DNA of 64,000 nt from a virus (Duplodnaviria > Heunggongvirae > Uroviricota > Caudoviricetes). The number at the start of each line of letters is the position of its first letter. Within the stretch, counting starts at the first letter, position 1. A program made the translations under genes and the position numbers. The stretch spans positions 159,865 to 223,864 of the IMG/VR virus record IMGVR_UViG_3300033463_000007; one strand, given 5' to 3'. The notes under the pieces were generated by a model. That model did not search any database. It was given only the letters and a program-made list of their open reading frames with translations, and was not told the DNA's origin. Below are positions 5,704 through 53,896 of this stretch, one piece after another.

Positions 5704-7116
5704 ATGGCAAAAAGTTGACTTGCTGGAGCTTCAAAAAAAATTACGATAACTGGCGGAAATGACAGTACAAATACAGATATATTAAAATATATGCAATTAA
5801 ATGCAGGCTGAATACAAACACTAGCTACACCAGTATTATCATTAACAGACTTAGCTATTACTTGGCCAAGTGTAACTAATAGGACCTCTTATACTGTTTA
5901 TGTTAATAATCAGTCCTATCAAGATCAAGTAATGATAAATTCTTTTGATATATCAGACTTTACACCCGGGACTTATTCAATTACAGTAAAAGCTATTGGA
6001 AGTACTTATTATCAAGACAGTTCATTAAGTACACCTTTTGTATATACATACTTAACTGCTCCAACAAATCTTGCAATAACAAATGATACAACATTATCTT
6101 TTACAGGTTCTTCTGGTGCAACTCATTATAGAGTTATTGTAGATTCTGAGACAATTCTTGGTATTTGTAATAGTTCTCCAGTTGACTTAGCTAGTTTTCA
6201 AGGCTGGGGTAATCTGACAGCAGGTGGTCATACAGTACAGTTACAAGCATTTGCTGATAATGCACGAGATAGTCAAGTTTCAACGGGTGTATTAGTTAGA
6301 ACTGGTGGTTATAATTTAACAGTTTCTACTTGACAAGAATCTGGTGAAGATAGTGGTCAATTTCAAGTTTTATATTCAGATAACTCCTCTGCTTGAGTTG
6401 GCTCTGGTACAACTAAGCATGTTTTACAAGTACTAGACTATAGATATACTTGAGATTATCAACAATCTTGAGAAATTAATGATGCCCAGCCATCATTACC
6501 TTATACACTTGCTGCAAATGCCTCTGCCTCAGTTTATTCTGAATCAAGTGGTGGCGGTGGGACCTGCTTTATTGCTGGTACACAAATAACTCTTGCTGAT
6601 GGTACCACAAAAGCTGCTGAGGATATTACTTATGATGATTCTTTGTTAGTTTGAAATTTCTATACTGGTACTTTTGATACAGCTAAACCCTTATGAATTA
6701 AGAAAGAAGAATTATCACCCTGTTATAATTTAGTCACTTTTGACAATGGTAAAACAATTGGTTTTGTTGGACCTGGACAAGAGATCGGTTATCATAGAAT
6801 TTATAATAATGAAGCTAAACAATTTACACATACTGGTGTAGCTGATACACCGGTAGGTACAACTTCTTTTGATGTTTTTGGACAGCAACCAAAAATAGTA
6901 AGTCAAGAAGTTAAATGAGAAAGAGTAAAATATTATAATATAATAACAGATAAATACTATAATTTATTTACAAATAATATTTTAACTTCTTGTATGCTAT
7001 CTAATGAATATGAAATATTAGATAATATGACTTATAATATAAATAATAGATATTTAACAGATAAACAAATTACTGATTATCTACAAAAAATTGAGGATTT
7101 AAGACGTCCAAATTAG
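5704..7116 (+). CDS. Structural protein with fibronectin-III-like repeats and C-terminal Hint (intein/hedgehog-like) domain
   Basis: ATG with RBS AGGAGAAATATAAAT upstream; many in-frame TGA; motif GGGGTCFIAGTQITLADGTTKAAEDITYDD is a classic Hint block A; ends TAG at 7114. Confidence 0.45.
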
Positions 7117-7602: not shown

Positions 7603-8382
7603 ATGCTAATAAGTGATTTAACAGGGACAACGTGGACGATAAACTCATCTGTAACGGCAACGTCGGGGCAATTCCGTTCCTCAAATATTGCTTTCACCGT
7701 TAACTACGGCGATGAGTGGAATGAAATCCGGATAGGCTATTATGCCTACCACCATGACCTCGTTGCTTCGGCAGACAGGGCGTGCGGTTTTAATGTTACG
7801 GTGGGCTTTTATTTTAACCTCGAAAACACGACGATAACCTTTACAGGCGGCACAGACGCCACCAACTCAACCCTCATCTCTTGGCTTGAAGCAAATGCTA
7901 CTAATGTTACGCCTGAACCAACACCAACAGAGAATATTTTGACACCCAAAGAGCAATTTTTTAAGAATATGAATGACCTTGCTCAAAGTATTATTGACAA
8001 AGCGGGTCTTGCAGCTGGCTTAAAAACGTTACAGGAGTTAAAAGAAGCTGTTGATGATATTGTTGTAGCCCAGGAAAGTGAAAGAAGGACATTATCATTA
8101 AATATGGCTAGCGGAGATCAAGTAGTTAACCCAACAGATGCTGATAAAGTAATGACACAGGTAACAATTACTAAACCAAGTACGTTTCTTGCAAGTAATA
8201 TTAAAGATGATATAGAAATAGGCGGAATTACTGGTACTTTTACTGACAGTACAACTGTTTCTACCGGACAAACGGCTGCAGCTGCAGGCCAGCTGTTAAT
8301 AGGATATTCAGCTTGGGTAAATGGTGTAGAAATACAAGGAACAATTCCAGTATATACTGGTGGAATTGTTACTACTGAATAA
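7603..8382 (+). CDS. Tail fibre-like protein, chimeric: GC-rich N-terminal module fused to conserved NIKDDIEIGGITGTFT C-terminal module
   Basis: C-terminal 90 aa nearly identical in pattern to 3300-3440 region of the large fibre gene; N-terminal 330 nt has strikingly higher GC and uses TGG for Trp. Confidence 0.5.
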   Translation: MLISDLTGTTWTINSSVTATSGQFRSSNIAFTVNYGDEWNEIRIGYYAYHHDLVASADRACGFNVTVGFYFNLENTTITFTGGTDATNSTLISWLEANATNVTPEPTPTENILTPKEQFFKNMNDLAQSIIDKAGLAAGLKTLQELKEAVDDIVVAQESERRTLSLNMASGDQVVNPTDADKVMTQVTITKPSTFLASNIKDDIEIGGITGTFTDSTTVSTGQTAAAAGQLLIGYSAWVNGVEIQGTIPVYTGGIVTTE

Positions 8383-14166: not shown

Positions 14167-14691
14167 ATGAAATTTGTTATAAAAGAAAAAACACCAGCAG
14201 AAAATAAGGCTTTATGTGAAAAATATCCTTTTCTTACTTGGCGTGGAGATCCGTTATATGTTGGAAGTTATTCAAAAGATAGAGAGCCAGATTATAAATA
14301 TACATGGGAAGATGAAATGCCAGATGGCTGGCGAAAAGCTTTTTGTCCACGAATTTGGGATGAGCTTAAAGCTATTCTTGAAAAAGCTGACTTTGTAAAT
14401 GAGTTTGAATTTATGCAAATAAAGGAAAAGTTTGGTACTTTAAGACTCTATTATTGTGGTATACCTGCTGAAATAAGTAAAGAGCTTTCAGATTGGGAAG
14501 ATAAATATGATAAACTTTCTGAACAAACTTGTATTATTTGTGGAGAACCTGCCACACAAATGACTACAGGGTGGATTACATATGTTTGTGATGATTGTGC
14601 AAAAGAAATGGGTGGTAGAACAATTCCAATTAAAGATTTAGATGAGTATTATGATAATCCTAAAAAATACTGAGAAACACATACAAATTAA
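14167..14691 (+). CDS. Hypothetical Cys-rich protein
   Basis: ORF extended through terminal TGA to TAA at 14689. Confidence 0.35.
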
Positions 14692-14700
14692 TATAAAATT

Positions 14701-14717
14701 TATTGTATAATATATTG
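14701..14717 (+). promoter_or_regulatory. Extended -10 promoter (TTGTATAATATA) driving the intron-containing suppressor tRNA
   Basis: TGnTATAAT extended -10 consensus; same motif recurs upstream of >12 genes. Confidence 0.5.
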
Positions 14718-14811: not shown

Positions 14812-15175
14812 GGAAGAATCGTTAAACGGTATGACCGCGGTCTTTAAAAGTAAATAGTAGCTAACTACTTATGGAGCACTTAATTAGAAATAATTAATGT
14901 GAATGTGGGCTAATTCGGTAAAGGTTAGAGAATGCCGAGCTAAATTGAATAAACAGGTGCTACGAGAACCGGATTAAGATCTTATGAAAGCTTATTAGGC
15001 ATCCTAGAGTGCTGTAGTTAAATGGTGTTAGATGAACAGCCTGTTATTTATAAATGTGTAGAGAACATATACCCACAACCTACGTCTTTATAAGATAAGG
15101 TTAAGACATGTTCCAATAAGATTAAATTCTTATGCAAAACCGCTTTTCTGGGTTCGAATCCTAGTTCTTCCGCCA
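14812..15175 (+). tRNA. Intron-containing suppressor tRNA-Trp(UCA): 5' exon 14812-14844, intron 14845-15134, 3' exon 15135-15172 plus encoded CCA
   Basis: Acceptor GGAAGAA/TTCTTCC perfectly paired across 360 nt; D-arm GTTA-AACGGTA-TGAC; anticodon stem GCGGT/ACCGC; splice positions fixed by U at exon end and G at intron end; spliced loop CUUCAAA (E. coli tRNA-Trp is CUCCAAA); T-arm CTGGG-TTCGAAT-CCTAG; discriminator G73 (Trp identity). Confidence 0.6.
14845..15134 (+). ncRNA. Group I-like intron (290 nt, no ORF) in anticodon loop of tRNA-Trp(UCA), inserted between nt 34 and 35
   Basis: Contains P-like GCTAATTCGGTAAAGG and Q-like AATGCCGAGC and S-like AAGATAAGGTT elements; insertion site identical to cyanobacterial tRNA-Leu(UAA) group I introns. 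Confidence 0.45.
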
Positions 15176-15212
15176 AAAGGAACTTTATTTAATATAAAGT
15201 TCCTTTTTATTT
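15176..15212 (+). terminator. Rho-independent terminator after tRNA
   Basis: AAAGGAACTTTATTTAATATAAAGTTCCTTTTT hairpin plus T-run. Confidence 0.6.
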
Positions 15213-15281: not shown

Positions 15282-15797
15282 ATGGAAATTTTATATTGTA
15301 AATATTGCGGTAAAGAATGTAAAAATAAAAATAGTTTAGCTCAGCATGAACTTAGATGCTCTTACAATCCAAATAGGCTAAAATATTCTACCTGGAATAA
15401 AGGAAAAACAAAAGAAGTTGATGCACGATTAGTTAGAAAAGTTACAGATGGTTTTAGTAAAGTTGGATGGCGTCATTATCAACAGTATCTTGCAGATAAT
15501 TCTATTGCTTGGGGGCAACAGAATATGCAGTGTTATAAAAAATATTTTTTAGAGGAACAACATCATTGTTGTGCTATTTGTGGCTGCTCCGATTTATGGC
15601 AAGATAAGCTATTAGTGTTTATTCTTGATCATATAGATGGTAATGCTGATAATAATAATCGTGAAAATTTACGTCTAATATGTCCTAACTGTGATTCTCA
15701 GTTAGATACTTTTAAATCTAAGAATAAAAAATCTGCACGAGCAAAACATAGAAATATAAAAGTAGTAACTGAGGAACAATATAAAGAATTATTTTAA
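15282..15797 (+). CDS. HNH homing endonuclease (zinc-finger + HNH)
   Basis: CKYCGKEC zinc finger; HHCCAICG...LDHIDGNADNNNRENLRLICPNCDSQL HNH motif; no TGA. Confidence 0.65.
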   Translation: MEILYCKYCGKECKNKNSLAQHELRCSYNPNRLKYSTWNKGKTKEVDARLVRKVTDGFSKVGWRHYQQYLADNSIAWGQQNMQCYKKYFLEEQHHCCAICGCSDLWQDKLLVFILDHIDGNADNNNRENLRLICPNCDSQLDTFKSKNKKSARAKHRNIKVVTEEQYKELF

Positions 15798-15861
15798 AAT
15801 TGTTCTAATATTACAGTAAATATTGTATAATAATATGTATAAAATTATTATGAGGTAAATT

Positions 15862-16443
15862 ATGGCAAAAGATCCATTAAAAACAGTTGGAGCAAGTAAT
15901 CTTTCTGACAAAGAACGAGCTAAAAATGATTATTATGCTACTGATCCTAAAACAACAAAGGCTTTTTTAGCTACATACCCATTAGATAAGACTAAGCTTA
16001 TCTGGGATCCAGGTAGTGGACATAATTTAATTATTAATGTTTTACAGGAGTATGGTTATAAAACATGGTCAACTGATTTATATAATTATGGTTATCAAGA
16101 TAATATTTTTGATTTTTTAACATATTCAAAAAAATTTGAAGGAATAATTTTTGGAAATCCCCCATATAAATTAGCTAATGAATTTGTAAAACACGCATTA
16201 GAAATAGTTACACCTGGAAGCCAAGTTATTTTTTTATTGCGTACGCTTTTTCTTGAGGGCCAGAAAAGATATAATGACATATTTAAACAAAAAAATTTAA
16301 AATTTGTTTTTGTATTTATAAATCGACAAGTATGTAGTACTAAAGATGATTTTACTGAAGGTAGTGCTATTTCATATAGTTTTTTTGTATTTGAAAAAGG
16401 TTTTATAGGAGAACCCACCATAAAATGGTTAGCTACAAATTAA
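15862..16443 (+). CDS. DNA N6-adenine (or N4-cytosine) methyltransferase
   Basis: IWDPGSGHN (motif I) and IIFGNPPY (motif IV NPPY). Confidence 0.6.
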   Translation: MAKDPLKTVGASNLSDKERAKNDYYATDPKTTKAFLATYPLDKTKLIWDPGSGHNLIINVLQEYGYKTWSTDLYNYGYQDNIFDFLTYSKKFEGIIFGNPPYKLANEFVKHALEIVTPGSQVIFLLRTLFLEGQKRYNDIFKQKNLKFVFVFINRQVCSTKDDFTEGSAISYSFFVFEKGFIGEPTIKWLATN

Positions 16444-17141: not shown

Positions 17142-18131
17142 ATGCAAAGAATGTTATCAGGAATAAAACCTACCGGAACTCCTACTTTAGGAACTTATTT
17201 AGGTGCAATTTTACCCTTTATAAGATACCAAAATGAATATGAGCTATTTATTTTTATTGCAGATTTACATGCCTTAACAACTTGTCAAAATGCTAAAGAA
17301 TTAAGAGATAATATTAATTTATTAGCTAAGATTTATCTAGCTGCTGGATTAGATTGTGGACAAAATAAAACTGTATTATTTAAGCAATCTGATGTATTAC
17401 AACATAGTCAGTTAAATTGGATTTTAAGTAATTATACACTAATGAGTGATCTTGAAATGATGACTCAATATAAACAAAAATGTCAGCAACTTGCAGCTAG
17501 ACAAGGAGTTAATGTATCTTTATTTACTTATCCTGTTTTAATGGCTGCAGATATTTTACTTTATAATACAGATTTAGTGCCTTGTGGTCAAGATCAAAAA
17601 CAACATATAGAATTAACACACGAGCTTGCCCGAAAATTTAACTCTATGTATGGTGAAACTTTTAAACTACCAAAGCCATATATAACCAAAACCGGCGCTA
17701 AAATAATGAGTTTATCTGACCCGACTAAAAAAATGAGTAAATCAGAGTCAGATAAAGGAACAATTTATTTAACTGATACTAAGGAAGTTATTTTTAATAA
17801 ATTTAAAAAAGCTGTCACTGATAGTGAAGGAAAAATTTATTATAATCCAGAAACTAAGCCTGGAATAAGCAATTTACTTACTATTTATGCTGCAATAAAA
17901 GATATTTCTATTCAAGAAGCTGAAAATATATTTAAAGATGAAAAAGATTACGGTAAATTTAAAAATGAAGTAGCTCAGATAGTTTGGCAATATTTAGATA
18001 CATTACAGTATAATATAAAACAAATTTCTGATAAACAAATATTTTTAACATTAGATGATGGTCAAAAACAGGCAGCTAAAATTGCATCAGAAACTCTATC
18101 CAAAGTATACAAAAAGGTGGGATTAAGATAA
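17142..18131 (+). CDS. trpS: Tryptophanyl-tRNA synthetase
   Basis: Class I aaRS: N-terminal MLSGIKPTGTPTLGTYLGAI, KMSKS motif KKMSKSESDKG; 329 aa; no TGA codons. Confidence 0.85.
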   Translation: MQRMLSGIKPTGTPTLGTYLGAILPFIRYQNEYELFIFIADLHALTTCQNAKELRDNINLLAKIYLAAGLDCGQNKTVLFKQSDVLQHSQLNWILSNYTLMSDLEMMTQYKQKCQQLAARQGVNVSLFTYPVLMAADILLYNTDLVPCGQDQKQHIELTHELARKFNSMYGETFKLPKPYITKTGAKIMSLSDPTKKMSKSESDKGTIYLTDTKEVIFNKFKKAVTDSEGKIYYNPETKPGISNLLTIYAAIKDISIQEAENIFKDEKDYGKFKNEVAQIVWQYLDTLQYNIKQISDKQIFLTLDDGQKQAAKIASETLSKVYKKVGLR

Positions 18132-18134
18132 AAT

Positions 18135-19196
18135 ATGTTTGATAGGCTTGAAAGTATATTAAATAAATATGATGAGCTTTCAATGAAATTAAGTTCTTCA
18201 GAAATTATTTCAAGTAATTTATATCAGCAATATAGTAAAGAGTTAGCAGATATTCAAGAAATTGTTGATACTTATTCTGCTTATAAAGACGCACAGGATT
18301 ATTTAGAACTACTTAAAGAAGATGAAGCTAAAAATACTGATTTGGAATTAAAAGTACTATATAATAGTGAAATTAAAGAAACTCAAAGTAAATTATCAGA
18401 GCTAGAAAATAATTTAAAATTATTATTATTGCCAGCTAACAAGGATGATTCCAAAAATATTATTATGGAAATTCGTGCAGGAGTTGGCGGAGATGAAGCA
18501 GCTATTTTTGCAGCAGATCTTTTTAATATGTATTTAAAATATACACAAAAACAAGGTTGGAATGTTTCAGTTAGTAGCTATACTGAAGGTGTTCTAGGTG
18601 GTTTTAAGGAAATTATCTTAAGTATTTCTGGTAAAAACGTTTATCAAAAATTAAAATATGAAGGTGGAGTACATCGGGTACAACGAGTACCAGAAACTGA
18701 GGCTAGAGGCAGAATTCATACATCAACAGCAACAGTTGCAGTACTTCCAGAAAGAACAGAAACAGAAGTTATAATTGATCCAAAAGATATTACTATTGGT
18801 TTATTTCATTCCGGTGGGGCTGGTGGTCAAAATGTAAACAAAGTTGAAACAGGTGTACGTATAACACATATTCCTACCGGAATGGTAGTTGCTTGTCAAG
18901 AAGAGCGGTCACAGCTACAAAACAAAGAACGTGCTTTTGAAATATTGCGCGCAAAGTTATGGGATTATTATAATACTCAAAATATTAATTCTGAAATAAA
19001 CCAACGAAATAGTATGATTGGTACTGGTGATAGATCAGAAAAAATTCGAACTTATAATTTTCCGCAGCATCGTATAACCGACCATAGAATTAATTATACT
19101 ACTTATAATATAGAAGAAGTATTACAAGGTAATTTAGATGATTTAATTGAACATTTACAAATTGCAGAAAATGCAAAATTGTTAATTAATCAATAA
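18135..19196 (+). CDS. prfA: Peptide chain release factor 1
   Basis: GGQ motif (SGGAGGQNVNKVETGVRITHIPTG), PxT-type tripeptide region RVPETEARGRIHTSTATVAVLPE, C-terminal HRINYT; 353 aa; no TGA codons. Confidence 0.85.
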   Translation: MFDRLESILNKYDELSMKLSSSEIISSNLYQQYSKELADIQEIVDTYSAYKDAQDYLELLKEDEAKNTDLELKVLYNSEIKETQSKLSELENNLKLLLLPANKDDSKNIIMEIRAGVGGDEAAIFAADLFNMYLKYTQKQGWNVSVSSYTEGVLGGFKEIILSISGKNVYQKLKYEGGVHRVQRVPETEARGRIHTSTATVAVLPERTETEVIIDPKDITIGLFHSGGAGGQNVNKVETGVRITHIPTGMVVACQEERSQLQNKERAFEILRAKLWDYYNTQNINSEINQRNSMIGTGDRSEKIRTYNFPQHRITDHRINYTTYNIEEVLQGNLDDLIEHLQIAENAKLLINQ

Positions 19197-19232
19197 GATT
19201 AAAAGAGCCTGTTTTAGCCAGGCTCTTTTTTA
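19197..19232 (+). terminator. Rho-independent terminator after prfA
   Basis: AAAAGAGCCTGTTTTAGCCAGGCTCTTTTTTAT hairpin, followed by TTTGCTAAATTATATAG motif. Confidence 0.6.
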
Positions 19233-19269
19233 TTTGCTAAATTATATAGTAAATATGGAGGATTTTATT

Positions 19270-20127
19270 ATGTTAAAATTTAAAGTACCAAAGCAACAAG
19301 ATTTAGATTTAGATCAGTTGATTTTTGATAGAATTACTTTTGGCAATACACAACCATCACCAAAAGATGATCGAGATTATATTGCGCAAGCTAAAGATTG
19401 ATCTAAAATAAAATTTCCAAAAGAATATAGAGCACCAAAAACAGAAGTTTTAAATCAAGAAAATTATGGGTCTTGCGTAGCTCATTCTTGCGCCACCGCT
19501 TTAGCCCAAGGAGAACAACTTATTTCAAATACCCACAATAATTATTCTCGCGGTTATATTTATGGTAATAGAAAATCAACTGACTTGCAAACTGAGGGTA
19601 TGATTGTTAGGCAGGCATTAAAGCAACTACATAATTGTGGAGATGTTCTATATGATGATTTTCCATATAATAAAACTTATCCTATGGTAAAAGCTTTAAT
19701 TGATATTGATAGAGAATATTTAGCAAATAAAGCAAAGCAGTATACTATTTTTGATTTTTATAGGTGTTGTGATGAAAATCAGTTAAAAGATGCTATTATA
19801 TCCTCCGGTGCAGTTATAATTGTAGTTCCTGTTTATAGTGATTTTGCCCGTGATTTACATAAAACTCAATCATGGGAACTCCGAGGCTATCATGCAATGG
19901 CTTTAGTTGGTTGAACTGCTGATAAATGAATTGTACAGAATTCTTGAGGCTTAGAATGGGGTTATGATGGTTGTTTATTAATGGATATGGATTATCCCAT
20001 AATTGAAAGCTGAGGCATAACCGTTAATAAGGAACTTAAAAAGTCACTTTGATATAGAATAAAAACAATTTTTAAACAATTTTGAAATTGAATTAAATAT
20101 ATCTGAAATAAAATATTTAAAAAATAA
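19270..20127 (+). CDS. Papain-like (C1) cysteine peptidase, paralog of 135..1187
   Basis: NYGSCVAHSCATALAQ Cys motif, GYHAMALVG-W-TADK-W-IVQNS-W-GLE-W-GYDG with W=TGA; ORF continuous only under TGA=Trp. Confidence 0.6.
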
Positions 20128-20216: not shown

Positions 20217-20663
20217 ATGGATACTTGATTAGTAACTATAATTTCATTAATCGGGAGCACTGCATTATCAACAATAGTTGGCTTAATTATAAAAAACAGC
20301 GTCTCTAAAAAAATGGATGAACAAAAAGAATTACTTGAACTTCGTGAATCTAAAGGGCATCAAGAGCGTAAGCAAGAAATGACAGAAATTATAAAAGCTG
20401 AGTTATTACCCGTTACACAGCAGCTTGATTCATTATCAGAAGCAATAAAAAAGAATAATGCCGGTACTGTTACATTATTAAGAGAGAGCTTAAAGCAATC
20501 CAGAGATCATTTAATGGAAAAAGGAGTTGCCACTGCCTCTGAAGTTGCAAGTTGACATGAACTATATAATACTTATGCAAAGCTAGGCGGAAATAATTTT
20601 AAAGATTATGTTGATGCTTGAAAAGATGATGTAGATGGGCTACCAAGAGAAAAAAGTAAATAA
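20217..20663 (+). CDS. N-terminal transmembrane protein with charged coiled C-terminus (holin-like / lysis accessory)
   Basis: MDT-W-LVTIISLIGSTALSTIVGLII TM segment; three TGA=W; preceded by TTTGCTAAATTAATTAG motif. Confidence 0.35.
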
Positions 20664-20692: not shown

Positions 20693-21073
20693 ATGGAAAA
20701 ATTTAGTTTAATTTGTGATTTAGTTATTGCTATTATTGGGGTAATTCCAACAATTATTTCATTAATTTATTTAGTTAGAAATATTATAAAAAATAAAAAT
20801 TGGAATATGATCATGAAAATGGCAATGGAAGCAATGACTGCTGTAGAAGCTTATGCTATTGCTAATCCTAACATGACATCTGAGGATAAACTTAATATGG
20901 CATTAGAGGCTATCAAGAAAGCCTGTGGATCTGCTGGAATTACAGTAGATGATATTCTTATTAAACAAATTATTGATTATATTTCTGAAATGTGCAGCTG
21001 GGCAAAAACTGTTAATACAAATGTAGAAGTAGTTGAAGTTAAAACTGTTATGCTTGCAGCAAAAACAAAGTAA
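20693..21073 (+). CDS. Holin-like protein (LL-H type architecture)
   Basis: N-terminal TM LICDLVIAIIGVIPTIISLIYLV followed by amphipathic helices. Confidence 0.4.
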   Translation: MEKFSLICDLVIAIIGVIPTIISLIYLVRNIIKNKNWNMIMKMAMEAMTAVEAYAIANPNMTSEDKLNMALEAIKKACGSAGITVDDILIKQIIDYISEMCSWAKTVNTNVEVVEVKTVMLAAKTK

Positions 21074-21529: not shown

Positions 21530-23023
21530 ATGAAGAAGACAGATAATTATCAACAAAATATAGATGAAAATAGTGATAAAAATTTTGAATCAATTGGGTA
21601 TGATGAACCAATTGATTTATTATATAGTGAATTAGTTGCCTCTAAGGAAACACCAGAACAAGTAATTATTTATACTGATTTTACACGTAGAACAGAATTA
21701 CCTACTGAAAATGATAAATATGTTAAATCATATATTCGTGAAGCTGATGGCGGATGAAATTTAGCTATTAAAGGTAAGCCTACTCATGAATTATGCACTG
21801 TATTAAGTAATTGTGTAGGCTGAGCCGCTGGTAGATATAATGAAATTTATGATGAAATTAAAAATATCACAGGTCATCATTATCCTTATTTAGTTTGTAA
21901 TGCAGAGGATTTTCCAGTTCGAGCCAAAAAATCATATCCTGATATTATAATGGATCAAACTCCTGAACCTGGCGCAATAATGGTCTGAGAAGGTATTGGT
22001 AGTCTCGCAGGACATGTTGCTATTGTAGAAGAAGTGATAGATAATAATACTGTATATACTTCTGAATCAGGTTATGGTAGTACTATTCCAATGAGATACC
22101 AAAAAAGAGTTAATGATAATGGTTGTTGAGGCATGAACACAACAAATTATAAATTTACTTGCTTTATGCACAATCCAGCAGTTGAAAAAACTATTATTAA
22201 TATAGTGCAACCAGTTGAAAGAGATGTACTAATAGATCAATTATATATTGATACACCTAATTATTCATATATTAGAATGGATCATAGTACAGCTTCTAAA
22301 GCCATAGGGCAGTTTAAACAGGGATATTTTAATTATACCGATAGTTTTATTGGCGATGATTATGTTTGATATAAGCTTGCTGAAAATCAATGAGTTGCTA
22401 AAACAGGCCATATCCAAGTATATCCTAAAGTAAATCCAAGTATAGAAAAAATTGAATTGAATGAAGACTATACTAATACATATTATGCAGGTGATTTTTT
22501 ACAGTTTAAAATGATAGGTTTAAATTGCAAAGAATATTGAAATACCGGGGAAGTAAAAGATGTTGTTTATAATAATTATAAAATAATACCAGCAAATGGC
22601 ACAGCTTTAACTGTTAATGATACAAAAATTATTATTAATTTTGAAAATAATTTAACTCTTGAATTACCTCTTGAGATAAAAGTTAAGGTTGAGCCAAAAG
22701 TTGTAAAAATACAGCTTTCTGGCACGTATAAAACTGAATATTGAGAAGGCGAAAAACTTGATTTAACTGGTCTTATTGTTGAAGCAGTTTATGATAATGG
22801 TGAAATTACTTCATCTATACCTTATATTGCTTCACCACAGGCAAATAGTTTGTTACCATTTATGGGGACTCAAAACGTTGTAATTGCTGCTTATCTTGAC
22901 AACAAAGGATTTTCAACTTCTTTTAAAATAAATGTAAAACATAAACAAACTGCAGCCGAAAAATTCAGTCAAATGATACAAGCACTAGCTAACTTTATTA
23001 GAAGTTTATTTAATAAAAAGTAA
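21530..23023 (+). CDS. CHAP-domain peptidoglycan hydrolase with C-terminal Ig-like repeats (lysin / tail-associated lysin)
   Basis: CTVLSNCVG-W-AAGRY (Cys) and GAIMV-W-EGIGSLAGHVAIVEEV (His) CHAP motifs; many TGA=W; C-terminal KVVKIQLSGTYKTEY-W-EGEKLDLTGLIVEAVYDNG Big-like domain. Confidence 0.6.
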
Positions 23024-28430: not shown

Positions 28431-29456
28431 ATGTCAGTAAAAGATGCGTTAATAGCTACTCATTTATTTTTAGAAAACGACTACTTTTTTCGGTATATTG
28501 ATTTAATTGAAAAAAATAAAAATAGAGTAAAACAAAAGTATAAAACTCAAAAACATCATATTATTCCAGCTATTGCTTTTAAATTATATAATTGAGAAGG
28601 TATTGATGCACCAGAAAATTTAGTTAATTTATTATATAAAGATCATATTTTAGCTCATTATTATTTAGCTTTAGCTACTAAAACTTCTGATTTTCAATAT
28701 AAAATGATTGCTGCTATAAATTTTATTTTAGGTAAAGCTAAACAAAGTAAAATAGATATACAAGAACTACAAACTTTTATCTTAAATTTGGAAAATTATC
28801 AAAATTTATATGAAAATTGAATTAAAGAAAGAAGTTTATTACTTCACTCCAAATTATTAGGTCATGAAACTTCTGAAGAAACAAGAAAAAAAATAAGTGA
28901 AGCAAATAAAAATAAAATTTATATTTATAAAGAAAATATAGTACGTGCTGTTCATAAAGAAGACTTACAATTATTTTTAGATAATGGTTGAACTTTAGGA
29001 AATCCTAACTGTCAAAAAAGAAAACAGACCACAGGACAGACTATTATACATAAAGAAGAAATTGAAAAATATATTTTTAAAGAAGACTTATCTTTATATT
29101 TAGCTAATGGTTGAATATTAGGACGAAGTGACCAACATAAAAAAGCAACACAGCAAGGAACACAAGCTTATTATGATAAATTAACAAAAGAAGAAAAAAT
29201 TAATAAATGTGCAACTAGACAAAATCAACACTGAGAAATGTCAGAAGAAACAAAGAAAAAAATAAGTAATGCAAAGTCTGGAAAAAAGCAATCTGAAGAA
29301 CAAAAACTTTTAAATAGTCAAAATAAAAAAGATACAATTTGAATGACTAATGGTCAACAAGATATTATGATTAAAAAAGATTTAGAACTTTATTATTTAG
29401 ACCAAGGTTTTATTCGAGGAAGAACTAATTATAAAAAAAATAAAAAAGGAGAATAA
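28431..29456 (+). CDS. Free-standing HNH homing endonuclease with NUMOD3-like repeats (341 aa, 9 in-frame TGA=Trp)
   Basis: KHHIIPAIAF HNH core; repeated SEETRKKISEANK / SEETKKKISNAKSG (NUMOD3) and LQLFLDNG-W-TLG / LSLYLANG-W-ILGR repeats; preceded by TTTGCTAAATTAATTAG motif; invisible in the standard-code ORF track. Confidence 0.55.
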
Positions 29457-45493: not shown

Positions 45494-45791
45494 GTTTTTT
45501 AATTTAATATTTGGTTAATTTTAAAATATTGCAACTAAAATATTTTGATAGGTGATTATAAAAAAATAATTTTAATTAGGCCTAATAATTATCATTTATA
45601 CTCATTGAAGTTTTCTGAAAAGATCAGTGAAGTTGCTACCTCTCGATATATAGGTGAAAGAAATCGGACCGCTATAAGGTGGGGTGCGGTTTAGACCCCT
45701 AAAGACAGCCGTCATTGAATGGTGATCACCCTATTCCATTCATTTTTTTATCTACTGCTGGTGTGGCTCAATGGCAGAGCAGCTGATTTGT

Positions 45792-46369
45792 AAAATAAAT
45801 TGCAACCTTGTAAGGAAACTTATAAGTGAAAATCTCGCTAATTCGGGGAAACCTACAATGAGTAGAATCTATCTTAATTGTGGTAGAAAAATTACCGGAC
45901 GAGGGCTTAAGTATTGTAACAATGTTTGCCAGAAAGAATATGAATATAAATCATATATTGAAAGATGGAAACAAGGTTTAGAAACTGGGCTTCGTGGGGA
46001 GTATCAAATATCTGATTTTATTAAAAGATATTTGTTTGAAACTCGTGGTAAGAAATGTGAACTGTGTGGTTGGGATAAAGTAAATCCTTTAACAAAAAAT
46101 GTTCCTGTAGAAATCCATCATATAGATGGAGATTACAAGAATAATTCAGAAGAAAATTTACAAATTTTATGTCCAAACTGCCATTCACTTACAAATACCT
46201 ACAAAAACTCTAATACTAATAATGGTAGAAAAGAGAGAAATAAATACTCGTCATGACAATCCCGAGCTAGGTTAATACCGAGTGTAGAGACTTTACACGA
46301 GAAACCTAAACCTATATAGGCATGGTTAAGAGAAAGTCCAGACTACAATGTGAAAACGATGTAGCACTG
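45792..46369 (+). ncRNA. Group I intron (td-like, subgroup IA) in tRNA-Thr anticodon loop
   Basis: P element CTAATTCGGGGAAACC (45836-45851), Q element GACAATCCCGAGCTA (46262-46276, near-identical to T4 td intron GACAATCCCGTGCTA), R element GTCCAGACTACAATG (46336-46350). Confidence 0.55.
45858..46256 (+). CDS. Intron-encoded HNH homing endonuclease
   Basis: MSRIYLNCGRK zinc finger; CELCG...VEIHHIDGDYKNNSEENLQILCPNCHSL HNH motif; ORF track extension to 45771 overlaps the tRNA 5' exon and is probably not translated. Confidence 0.6.
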   Translation: MSRIYLNCGRKITGRGLKYCNNVCQKEYEYKSYIERWKQGLETGLRGEYQISDFIKRYLFETRGKKCELCGWDKVNPLTKNVPVEIHHIDGDYKNNSEENLQILCPNCHSLTNTYKNSNTNNGRKERNKYSS

Positions 46370-47080: not shown

Positions 47081-47285
47081 TTTTTATAAAAGTTACAGTA
47101 AAATTATTAGCTAAATTAAAAGAATAAAATAGCTAAGATAGAAAAAATAGCACAACCAAAGAAATTTGGTGTCGCAAAGCTAAAGGGCCCTTTCCGGGCA
47201 GCCAGTTGCTTCTAGGAGACATTACTCATGGAAGCTTTTATTTTATTTATATTTTATTAAAAATTTATATAAAGGGGAAAAATTT

Positions 47286-47927
47286 ATGAAATTAAGAAAC
47301 ACATTAGCACTTATTATGGTAGCAGCTATGCTTTGCTTTGTTGGTGTTGGCTTTGCAGCATGAACATTTATGAATATTGAAGATGCTGAAGTTAGTACAA
47401 TTCAGGATAAAGTTGCTGTCGGTATTGAATTAAATAATGGTTTTAAACTCTATAATGCAGCAGATGATGCTGAAATTACCGCACTTTATCTTATTTGTGA
47501 TGCTCCTGCTGGTGAAACAGATATTCTTAATGGCCAGGGTGTTTATTGGTCAACTTCTGCAACAGGTAAAGATGGTTCTGGTAATAAGTTAGCTGTTACT
47601 AATGTATATATTAAAGGTACATTAGCAAAAGCTGATGAAGACGGTGTCTGGGATAAAGCTACTGTTGATGTTGCATTTACAGCCGACTATACTGATTTAA
47701 GTTCAACTTATATTACTTTTGGTGTAGCTCCAACTATTGCTAATACTACTGGTATTACTGTTGCAAATAATGCAGTAGTTCAAAGTGCATCTTTTGTATT
47801 ACCTTCAGTTGCATATGTTGCAGCAAATCTTCCTCACAGTATTTCAGAGTTAACAGATATGAATACTGCCCTTGGAACAGACTTAAGCGGTACTGCTTTA
47901 AGATTTACAGCTCAAATTGTTGCTTAA
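47286..47927 (+). CDS. Secreted protein with signal peptide
   Basis: MKLRNTLALIMVAAMLCFVGVGFAA-W signal peptide; TGA=W joins to ORF 47370..47927. Confidence 0.4.
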
Positions 47928-49695: not shown

Positions 49696-49736
49696 AAAAA
49701 TCTGCTCCTTGTGAGCAGATTTTTTATTTTTTATTG
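49696..49736 (+). terminator. Rho-independent terminator followed by TTATTGTATAATATA promoter
   Basis: AAAAAAATCTGCTCCTTGTGAGCAGATTTTTTATTTTTT. Confidence 0.6.
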
Positions 49737-49775: not shown

Positions 49776-50181
49776 GGGGGTGTAAAGGTTTCGACAGGGT
49801 TAAGAAAGTGATAGTATACGCAGGAGTTATTCACCTTACGAATCGGTAATTTAAAATAAACGACAATACAATTGTTACTTTTAGTCCTTTCTTAATTAAT
49901 GCACTCTCTTCTATGAGGGCTGCTGCTTAAGATATTATAGGCGCCAAAACAATACGCTGGTGATCAAGCAAGTATTTGAGGTCAAAGAACGGGTCACATA
50001 AAGTTGTCCAACTTTAAAATGGACTGGTGGAGACGGATAAAACCGGCGCAACTCATTTAATATATTGAATTTGCTTATTTTACATTATATTAAATTATTT
50101 TATTAAATAAGCTAGTGCGTAAGTATTATACTATTTTAGTATTAATTTTGGACAGGGGTTCGATTCCCCTCACTTCCACCA
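49776..50181 (+). ncRNA. ssrA: tmRNA (ssrA) with long tag ending -AAA
   Basis: 5' GGGGGTGTAAAGGTTTCGACAGGG (cf. E. coli GGGGCUGAUUCUGGAUUCGACGGG), 3' GGACAGGGGTTCGATTCCCCTCACTTCCACCA; acceptor with G3:U70; tag ORF ...GAC AAT ACA ATT GTT ACT TTT AGT CCT TTC TTA ATT AAT GCA CTC TCT TCT ATG AGG GCT GCT GCT TAA = (N)DNTIVTFSPFLINALSSMRAAA. Confidence 0.75.
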
Positions 50182-50185
50182 ATGT

Positions 50186-50261
50186 CTGGGTGTAATTCAG
50201 TTGGTAGAATGCGTGATTTGGGATCACGATGCCGGATGTTCAAGTCATCTCACTCAGACCA
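50186..50261 (+). tRNA. tRNA-Pro(UGG)
   Basis: CTGGGTG-TA-ATTC-AGTTGGTA-GAAT-G-CGTGA-TTTGGGA-TCACG-ATGCC-GGATG-TTCAAGT-CATCT-CACTCAG-A-CCA. Confidence 0.7.
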
Positions 50262-53101: not shown

Positions 53102-53896
53102 ATGGCATATGGTTTTATTTATAAAATAATAACTACAGCTTCTAATAAAGTTTATATTGGACAAACAACTAGAACTATTGAAGAACGTTACCAAGAGCAT
53201 TTGAAAGCAAGAAATAGTAAAGATAAAAATACTTTACATTTATATCTTGCTATGAATAGGTATGGCGTTGATACTTTTAGTGTTGAAAAAATTGATGAAG
53301 CTAATACACAAGAAGAACTAAATCAAAAAGAAATATATTGAATTAATTTTTATGATTCAATGAATAATGGATATAATATGGCACCTGGTGGTAGCATAAA
53401 TATTTTTGAATCTGAAAAAGTTAGAAAAAAACATGCAGCAAGCATGCGTGATCCAAAAACACGAGAAAAAATTTCTAAAACAATGCATGAGCTTAGAACT
53501 ACTTTTGGCTTTTCTGAGGAACATAAAAAAAAGATACGTGAATCAAGTCGAAAGCGAAAAGAAGAACGGGCAAAGTTAGGTTTAAAATATTATGATGATT
53601 GTTCACATTGTGCAACTAGATCAAAAGCAGTTTATTGTATATTAGATACCGGTGAAAAATTTGAATTTGATTCTATTTTACACGCTGGTAAATGATGATA
53701 TGAAACATACAAACCCTTTGGTGAAACTTATTCTACTGCTACCTATCAAAGAAAAATTGAAGCCTCTATTGCGGGTAAAGAAATTATTTTCCAATCCGGA
53801 CATGACAGTAGAAGTCAAGGTAAAAAAAATATTATTATTAAAATAACTAATATAAAATGATTTTATAAAGATAATTGAAATGGAGGTGATGCCTAA
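53102..53896 (+). CDS. GIY-YIG homing endonuclease inserted within polA (intron-encoded)
   Basis: GFIYKIITTASNKVYIGQTTRTIEERYQEHL GIY-YIG motif; ORFs 53102..53341 and 53360..53695 same frame joined by TGA; preceded by GTGCTAAATTAATTAG motif and RBS GGAGG. Confidence 0.7.

Follow-up and report, generated by a model that had tools for sequence, protein, structure and literature searches.

A suppressor tRNA-trpS-prfA locus that very probably serves UGA recoding in a Jade-like gut phage

Introduction

Why would a phage carry the genes of a tryptophanyl-tRNA synthetase (TrpRS) and of a release factor side by side, a short distance from a suppressor tRNA gene? The question is raised by a 64,000-nucleotide stretch of a Caudoviricetes virus record (IMGVR_UViG_3300033463_000007, positions 159,865 to 223,864; hereafter "the window"), in which trpS (17142-18131) is followed by prfA (18135-19196), the gene of release factor 1 (RF1), and in which an interrupted gene for a tRNA(UCA) lies upstream. 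The original prediction, made from the letters of this stretch, held that the three genes together enable UGA to be read as Trp. Our analysis makes it highly probable that the window comes from a Jade-like gut phage of ~230 kb with TGA recoding, that it holds the code-change module of this phage, and that this module operates the code switch proposed below. The basis consists of the identities of the genes, the absence of in-frame TGA from them, their recoded neighbors, a tRNA that is canonical once spliced, and conserved synteny; from these, we infer the timing of expression, the splicing of the intron, and the role of RF1.

Such a set of genes has a precedent. Borges et al. (bioRxiv 10.1101/2021.08.26.457843, Fig. 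S6 and Table S2) described a "code change module" made up of a suppressor tRNA, TrpRS, and RF1 in Jade phages, which are TGA-recoded, ~200 kb in size, and have Firmicutes hosts. The Jade module is standard-coded, directly precedes a lysis cassette with TGA codons in frame, and was proposed to drive the expression of late and lysis genes (10.1101/2021.08.26.457843).

Results

The open reading frame (ORF) at 17142-18131 (+ strand) encodes a TrpRS of 329 amino acids. In a profile search, it scored 324.1 bits with TIGR00233 (trpS), for which the cutoff is 176.75, whereas the best tyrosyl-tRNA synthetase (TyrRS) model, NF006330, gave 47.9 against a cutoff of 220. The protein matched the Pfam family tRNA-synt_1b and aligned end to end with the B. 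stearothermophilus TrpRS (1i6k; E = 2e-88). The KMSKS motif is intact (amino acids 197 to 201, window 17730-17744), and residues M129, D132, and Q147 of the Trp pocket (B. stearothermophilus numbering) are kept, as they are in 120 of 120 homologues. The signature TIGN, equivalent to HIGH, reads TLGT (amino acids 15 to 18, window 17184-17195). The resulting N18T substitution (same numbering) was found in only 8 of the 120 closest homologues, and those carriers that could be placed belong to this phage lineage and to its sisters L001, L002, and L005; N18 is retained in the TrpRS of the Jade phage L008 and in bacterial TrpRSs. These handles refer to the four related lineages that we fetched (L001; L002/L003; L005 to L007; L008/L009), which together with the window make up the five lineages compared below.

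The second gene, prfA (18135-19196), starts 3 nt past the end of trpS on the same + strand and encodes an RF1 of 353 amino acids. It exceeded the cutoffs of two RF1 equivalogs, NF001859 (472 bits versus 400) and TIGR00019 (466.8 versus 423.25), whereas the RF2 model TIGR00020 (prfB) gave 260.9, under its cutoff of 370. The Pfam domains PCRF (1.4e-66) and RF-1 (4.6e-39) were both recognized, and the comparison with a solved RF1 (1zbt) gave an E value of 3e-100. The PxT tripeptide is present as PET at amino acids 186 to 188 and GGQ at amino acids 230 to 232; the RF2 tripeptide SPF was looked for in this protein and is absent. Furthermore, the decoding element QRVPETEARGRIHTSTATV matches the same element in solved RF1s, with which GGDEA (helix tip), QRVPET, RIHTSTAT, and GGQ also align. 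From these conserved decoding elements, the protein is predicted to release at UAA and UAG and not at UGA. Both assignments bear out the original prediction, which had described a trpS with KMSKS followed by an RF1 gene with GGQ and PxT. It had proposed TIGR00233 and TIGR00019 as checks, and both were matched above their curated cutoffs; the two identities that it had named as fatal, TyrRS for the first gene and an SPF-bearing RF2 for the second, are those rejected by the scores above.

Upstream of the pair lies a suppressor tRNA(UCA) gene in two parts. The 5' exon (14812-14844, + strand) ends with U34, a group I-like intron of 290 nt (14845-15134, +) separates tRNA positions 34 and 35, and the 3' exon (15135-15175, +) runs from C35 and A36 through CCA. 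When the exons were joined in silico, they formed a canonical cloverleaf of 74 nt with anticodon UCA, G73, and an encoded CCA. ARAGORN, run on the raw window, reported only a transfer-messenger RNA (tmRNA) and a tRNA-Pro and no suppressor tRNA. The distance from the tRNA 3' end to the trpS start is 1,967 nt, as anticipated by the original claim that trpS and prfA sit about 2 kb downstream of an intron-containing suppressor tRNA. The anticodon stem-loop GCGGTCTTCAAAACCG is common to this tRNA and its intronless counterpart in L008, and the acceptor stem of the L001 tRNA(UCA) differs from that of the window by compensatory changes.

The Rfam model Intron_gpI (RF00028) covered the window intron in full, though weakly (17.7 bits, E = 0.047), and covered the 198-nt intron of L001 (L001 positions 750 to 947) in full with 30.4 bits (E = 3.8e-6). 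At the borders, the 5' exon terminates in U and the intron in G. The intron core is nearly identical in the window and in L001, with an extra insertion of ~93 nt in the window copy, while the flanking proteins of the two are only ~81% identical; this suggests either a recent spread of the intron or strong constraint on it. A scan of IMG/VR with a DNA pattern of the intron junction gave no match.

We then considered how TGA is used in the window, whose GC content is low (~30%). When TGA was read as sense, stop-free ORFs (100 codons or longer) on the + strand covered 57.0 kb of the 64 kb, up from 47.7 kb, whereas reading TAG as sense gave a far smaller gain. In-frame TGA occurs in 23 of the 66 genes of the window and is absent from the other 43. 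Altogether, the 66 genes contain 76 in-frame TGA and 174 TGG codons, and the distribution per gene is bimodal, a minority of genes having 3 to 9 TGA each with few or no TGG. The TGA-rich set comprises two papain-family peptidases, a CHAP protein, an amidase endolysin, two homing endonucleases, a Holliday-junction resolvase, and tail-fiber-like proteins. Between the two Peptidase_C1 paralogues of the window, TGA stands opposite TGG at the conserved Trp of the papain-family NSWG motif, and because of this alignment we read TGA as Trp. As for termination, 61 of the 66 genes end in TAA and 5 in TAG, and a genuine TGA stop is possible in at most two. The genes at 14167-14691 and 45771-46319 (+) are the only ones with a TGA near the C terminus (codon 169 of 174 and codon 162 of 182, respectively); they may have genuine TGA stops and gain short extensions under suppression. 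The homing endonuclease genes at 28431-29456 and 53102-53896 (+), one of the HNH type and one of the GIY-YIG type, contain 6 and 5 TGA, respectively, and no TGG. Preferential recoding of homing endonucleases has been published, and the two heavily recoded ones of the window agree with it.

Neither trpS nor prfA contains an in-frame TGA, as originally stated, whereas TGA occurs out of frame 20 and 22 times, respectively; each gene has two TGG codons and a TAA stop. The lysis genes that begin ~60 nt past prfA contain 20 TGA versus 4 TGG, and their contrast with trpS and prfA is significant (Fisher p = 0.003). Across the five lineages, trpS and prfA have 0 TGA and 17 TGG versus 62 TGA and 28 TGG in the downstream genes (Fisher p = 5e-8, for lineages that are not phylogenetically independent). 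It is solely through this contrast with the lysis genes and across the five lineages that the TGA-free state of trpS and prfA is informative.

The arrangement is conserved in relatives of the phage. A 232,051-bp contig in public data carries RF1 and TrpRS identical to those of the window. The other relatives are more distant: RF1 and TrpRS are 82% and 81% identical, respectively, in L001, 61% and 57% in L002/L003 (scaffolds of 221 kb and 93 kb), 59% and 57% in L005 to L007, and 56% and 52% in L008/L009, L008 being the 203-kb JS_AP1_S143_scaffold_136784. In all five lineages (49 to 82% identity), trpS is immediately followed by prfA, both are TGA-free, and the downstream genes contain TGA. PhoH and an HslV-like gene lie 5' of the module and peptidase, transmembrane, or holin genes lie 3' of it in all lineages. 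Each also has a tRNA(UCA) upstream of trpS and prfA, which is intron-split in L001 and is intronless and adjoins trpS in L008. In the sub-lineage of L002 (8278-8349) and L005 (~8281-8352), the tRNA(UCA) has an odd T arm and U73 and was missed by ARAGORN, although it passed the Rfam tRNA model (35 bits in L002); that of L005 shows a compensatory change in the anticodon stem. Non-canonical tRNAs of this kind may account for suppressors that appear to be "missing" from recoded phages.

In neighbor-joining (NJ) trees, the phage RF1s formed one clade with 99% bootstrap support relative to a small bacterial sample, and the topology of the TrpRS tree was congruent with that of RF1. The idea, raised with the original prediction, that the two genes might form phage-specific clades is upheld for RF1 and less firmly for TrpRS (53%). 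The closest named bacterial TrpRSs are those of Acholeplasmatales and Anaeroplasma, with 54 to 56% identity. An RF1 labeled "Intestinibacter sp." probably comes from a mis-binned phage contig, because it is 97% identical to the RF1 of L008. Further scans added no relatives: RF1 peptide patterns had no match in IMG/VR, the GenBank phage collection gave only matches of at most 50% identity, mostly to host-contaminant or unverified contigs and uninformative in this respect, and a scan of genome contigs gave just ordinary bacterial RF1s (at most 52% identity, chance peptide matches), which served as outgroups only.

The surroundings of the module contain sequences that resemble transcription signals. 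The motif TTGTATAATA, which resembles an extended -10 element, recurs exactly 8 times in the window and solely on the + strand (9270, 10009, 14703, 15823, 44580, 49734, 51229, and 56601), versus 1.19 expected, and none of 100 shuffles reached 8. The copies are mostly intergenic, 5' of TGA-free genes or RNA genes, which makes the motif a candidate phage promoter. One copy (14703-14712) is ~100 nt 5' of the 5' exon of the tRNA, a second (15823-15832) stands at the head of a putative unit that extends from a methyltransferase-like gene to prfA, and comparable motifs precede the module in L001, L002, L005, and L008. A terminator-like hairpin with a 14-bp stem followed by a T tract comes right after the tRNA (15175-15207, +), and another, with an 11-bp stem that includes 5 GC pairs and a T tract, lies 5 nt past the prfA stop (19201-19229, +). 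Between the motif at 15823 and position 19201, the search for terminator-like sites gave only weak intragenic matches. Judging from these elements, the methyltransferase-like gene through prfA would form one transcription unit, and the terminator-like hairpin at 19201-19229 would divide this standard-coded unit from the recoded lysis genes. The two hairpins and the motif copies at 14703 and 15823 would fit a module that is expressed on its own and earlier, although they are no proof of it.

The ~2 kb between the tRNA and trpS contain an HNH endonuclease gene, the methyltransferase-like gene, a 71-amino-acid ORF, and a metallophosphatase gene. The HNH endonuclease gene is free-standing (15282-15797, +), has no TGA, and lies directly 3' of the intron-bearing tRNA; in L001, a GIY-YIG endonuclease gene (1764-2735) takes its place. 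Each of the two resembles a mobile element that has inserted into the module. The methyltransferase-like gene (15862-16443, +; 193 amino acids) encodes an NPPY N6-adenine methyltransferase-like protein that matches phrog_799 ("DNA methyltransferase," E = 5e-48) and adjoins the module in all five lineages with 48 to 53% identity. The protein consists of the NPPY catalytic domain and has no obvious target-recognition domain. Its AF2 model (pLDDT 89) had M.TaqI, CamA, and TrmM as top Foldseek matches, DNA m6A methyltransferases thus being mixed with TrmM. Non-recoded phages have homologues too, as does a Solobacterium prophage, where the gene lies beside a C5 DNA methylase. The gene was also considered as a PrmC-like release factor methylase or a TrmM-like tRNA m6A37 methylase, and neither was supported. 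Because PHROGs annotates it as a DNA methyltransferase and homologues are found in non-recoded phages, we rejected a role in the toolkit; it is probably an orphan DNA m6A methyltransferase and not part of the code switch.

Downstream of prfA, four genes of a lysis cassette, with 9, 3, 0, and 8 TGA, all begin within 2.4 kb. The first (19255-20127, +; 9 TGA, 2 TGG) encodes a papain-family Peptidase_C1 protein (PF00112, E = 4e-13; phrog_16701, peptidase), and its true start is likely the ATG at 19270, behind GGAGG. It is followed by the gene of a protein with an N-terminal transmembrane segment (20217-20663, +; 3 TGA, 0 TGG), which matches PHROG families of unknown function, and by a holin-like gene (20693-21073, +; 0 TGA; phrog_2609, holin, E = 1.3e-6), for which Pfam Phage_holin_6_1 gave 21.2 bits, below its cutoff. 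The fourth gene (21530-23023, +; 8 TGA, 0 TGG) encodes a CHAP-domain cell-wall hydrolase-like protein (Pfam CHAP, E = 7.7e-12).

Elsewhere in the window, a tmRNA gene (49776-50181, +) scored 85.5 bits with Rfam, for which the gathering score is 47, and a tRNA-Pro(UGG) gene (50186-50261, +) lies 5 nt past it; the copy of TTGTATAATA at 49734 precedes both. One may speculate that the phage tmRNA rescues ribosomes that read through host UGA stops. A c-di-GMP-I riboswitch aptamer (47139-47213, +; 49.5 bits, gathering score 35) lies 5' of the ORF at 47286-47927. Lastly, no family matched the ORF at 5704-7116 (+; 470 amino acids), which has 9 TGA codons in frame and contains a sequence, GGGGTCFIAGTQI, that recalls a Hint/intein N-terminal splice motif.

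Discussion

That 43 of 66 genes are TGA-free suggests that the host is standard-coded and that the code is switched during infection. In the scheme that we propose, host ribosomes with the standard code would translate the TGA-free trpS and prfA early in infection. The tRNA(UCA) gene would be transcribed from its own promoter-like motif and freed of its group I intron, and the phage TrpRS would charge the mature tRNA with Trp, as demonstrated for homologues. The charged tRNA would then compete with host RF2 for UGA and decode it as Trp, unlocking the genes with in-frame TGA; synthesis of the peptidase, CHAP, and amidase lysis proteins, of the homing endonucleases, and of the tail-fiber-like proteins would be delayed until the switch. 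The phage RF1 would secure termination at UAA and UAG, so that phage translation would likely become independent of RF2, an end state resembling that of a code-4 Mycoplasma cell.

The role of RF1 in this scheme differs from that given by the original prediction, in which RF1 favored read-through. That the module enables UGA to be decoded as Trp is supported by synteny, by the recoding of the neighbors, and by the homologous TrpRS:tRNA pairs. The part that cast RF1 as a promoter of read-through did not hold, because RF1 is inactive at UGA and extra RF1 does not remove RF2. As a speculation, the suppressor might also read the in-frame UGA of the frameshift site in host prfB and thereby lower RF2 synthesis. 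In an extended version of the proposal, the switch would be gated by RNA and self-reinforcing: intron removal would control it, the TLGT TrpRS would be an orthogonal partner of the tRNA, and read-through of prfB would collapse RF2 and leave RF1 alone. We regard this version as doubtful.

Several observations weigh against the proposed code switch. Most genes of the window (43 of 66) are TGA-free, and the use of TGG for all four Trp codons of trpS and prfA has a probability of ~0.23 under the pooled TGA fraction. PhoH, upstream, contains 3 in-frame TGA, and a TGA also stands at codon 9 of the metallophosphatase gene, which directly precedes trpS within the putative unit; with these two genes in view, the absence of TGA marks early expression only imperfectly. 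In the TrpRS, a T replaces the conserved N of the TIGN signature, and the protein is just 52% identical to the characterized AP1 enzyme (taken as that of L008). The introns of the window and of L001 are both under the Rfam gathering score of 50. Monophyly of the phage TrpRSs has only 53% NJ support, in trees that hold few bacterial sequences and none from Clostridia. That the host uses the standard code is a presumption, and the contribution of RF1 is a conjecture, since extra RF1 leaves the action of RF2 at UGA unreduced.

What else could explain a phage trpS beside prfA? The phage TrpRS might only boost the supply of Trp-tRNA or replace a shut-off host enzyme, the suppressor being charged by host TrpRS. 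E. coli TrpRS indeed charges UGA suppressor tRNAs, and most recoded phages have no synthetase (10.1101/2021.08.26.457843); TrpRS is also found in large phages that are not recoded, such as Microcystis phage MaAM05, and the TrpRS of phage HF2 charges E. coli tRNA-Trp(CCA) in addition to its own tRNA (PMC12636597). Yet the linkage of trpS to tRNA(UCA) and prfA holds throughout the lineages examined, the AP1 homologue charges its cognate tRNA(UCA) but leaves total E. coli tRNA uncharged, and AP1 and HF2 TrpRSs are each most active with their own tRNA (PMC12636597), so that we consider a pure supply function unlikely. Still less probable is that a jumbo phage carries trpS and prfA as generic auxiliary genes for translation, which only by chance lie beside the suppressor tRNA and the lysis cassette. 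Large phages often bring tRNAs, synthetases, and translation factors, the window itself has a tmRNA and a tRNA-Pro, and release factor-like matches exist in 325 phage database records, many of them host contigs or short domain matches. Against this stand the co-occurrence of RF1 (and not RF2), TrpRS, and tRNA(UCA) in a TGA-recoded genome, mirrored by RF2 in TAG-recoded phages, the adjacency of trpS and prfA, which has held down to 49 to 57% identity, and the congruence of the gene trees.

Two other explanations concern the RF1 and the origin of the DNA. Antagonism of codes between phage and host or between phages, an idea that goes back to recoded crAss-like phages, is discussed in 10.1101/2021.08.26.457843, and the same gut habitats commonly hold TAG-recoded phages; by increasing termination at UAG, RF1 could, as its sole function or besides a housekeeping one, block co-infecting TAG-recoded phages or amber-suppressing hosts. 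We find this quite improbable, as the 61 TAA and 5 TAG stops of the phage's own genes give RF1 a housekeeping job and its decoding elements are those of an ordinary RF1. The window could also be a piece of a code-4 bacterial (Mycoplasmatota-like) genome with trpS and prfA as housekeeping genes, in keeping with its ~30% GC, with the kinship of its TrpRS to Acholeplasmatales and Anaeroplasma (54 to 56%), and with the sole use of RF1 by code-4 cells (PMC12421855). However, TGA is used not genome-wide but in a bimodal manner (43 of 66 genes lack it), the gene content is that of a phage (holin, endolysins, homing endonucleases, PhoH, tail-like proteins), and the relatives are ~200- to 230-kb contigs with the same synteny, including a scaffold named in the Jade study. 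Bimodal TGA use and phage gene content rule out a code-4 bacterium, for which we see next to no chance.

With the code-change module as the preferred reading, the window is a divergent and complete example of phage machinery for transient rewriting of the genetic code. Together with the relatives, it shows that the tRNA(UCA)-TrpRS-RF1 unit is passed on en bloc in a wide range of ~200- to 230-kb phages, beyond the first two genomes. One reason why suppressor tRNAs are overlooked in many recoded phages would be their intron-split or non-canonical forms, neither of which was called by ARAGORN. Finally, the diverged TrpRS:tRNA(UCA) pair with its TIGN-to-TLGT change could serve work on genetic-code expansion.

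Comparison with known systems

Group I introns occur in the anticodon loops of bacterial tRNAs, for example, in cyanobacterial and plastid tRNA-Leu(UAA). As in the tRNA-Leu(UAA) introns, the intron of the window follows U34, here with a 5' exon that ends in U and an intron that ends in G. Unlike them, it resides in a phage nonsense-suppressor tRNA, and it scores below the Rfam gathering score.

The Jade phages are the closest match. The window shares with their module the order tRNA(UCA), TrpRS, and RF1, the standard coding of these genes, and the position 5' of a TGA-bearing lysis cassette; recoded genes occur in scattered blocks in both, and the synteny of L008 agrees with that of the window, including PhoH 5' and a holin 3'. 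In contrast to L008, the tRNA of the window holds a 290-nt group I-like intron and lies ~2 kb from trpS, the first lysis gene encodes a papain-family peptidase, and the TrpRS signature is TLGT instead of TLGN.

Function has been demonstrated for two homologous pairs: in the work of Seki et al. (2025; PMC12636597), TrpRS and tRNA(UCA) of the phages AP1 and HF2 placed Trp at UGA codons, both in vitro and in E. coli, the AP1 pair was orthogonal, and the strength of RF2 set a limit on UGA suppression. L008 is likely the source contig of AP1, as judged from its scaffold name and G73 rather than from a sequence match. Like AP1, the window has a tRNA with a UCA anticodon and G73, and its homologous pair comes from the same kind of operon; unlike the AP1 and HF2 pairs, it is known from sequence, is divergent, and needs intron removal.

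Mycoplasmatota that lack prfB all have a UGA suppressor tRNA (PMC12421855). As in these code-4 bacteria, a tRNA(UCA) would read UGA as Trp and RF1 would terminate translation in the phage, in which 0 of 66 genes have been assigned a TGA stop. The change in code-4 cells is permanent and genome-wide and RF2 is lost, whereas in the phage it would be transient, host RF2 is presumably present, and about one-third of the genes use TGA. The TAG-recoded Lak, Agate, and crAss-like phages, which combine a tRNA(CUA) with RF2 (10.1101/2021.08.26.457843), mirror the window in pairing a suppressor tRNA with a release factor that is blind to the reassigned stop; they differ in that TAG becomes Gln, the factor is RF2, and a linked synthetase is usually absent. 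The type of module found here has already been described in Jade phages, and the window is a divergent further member.

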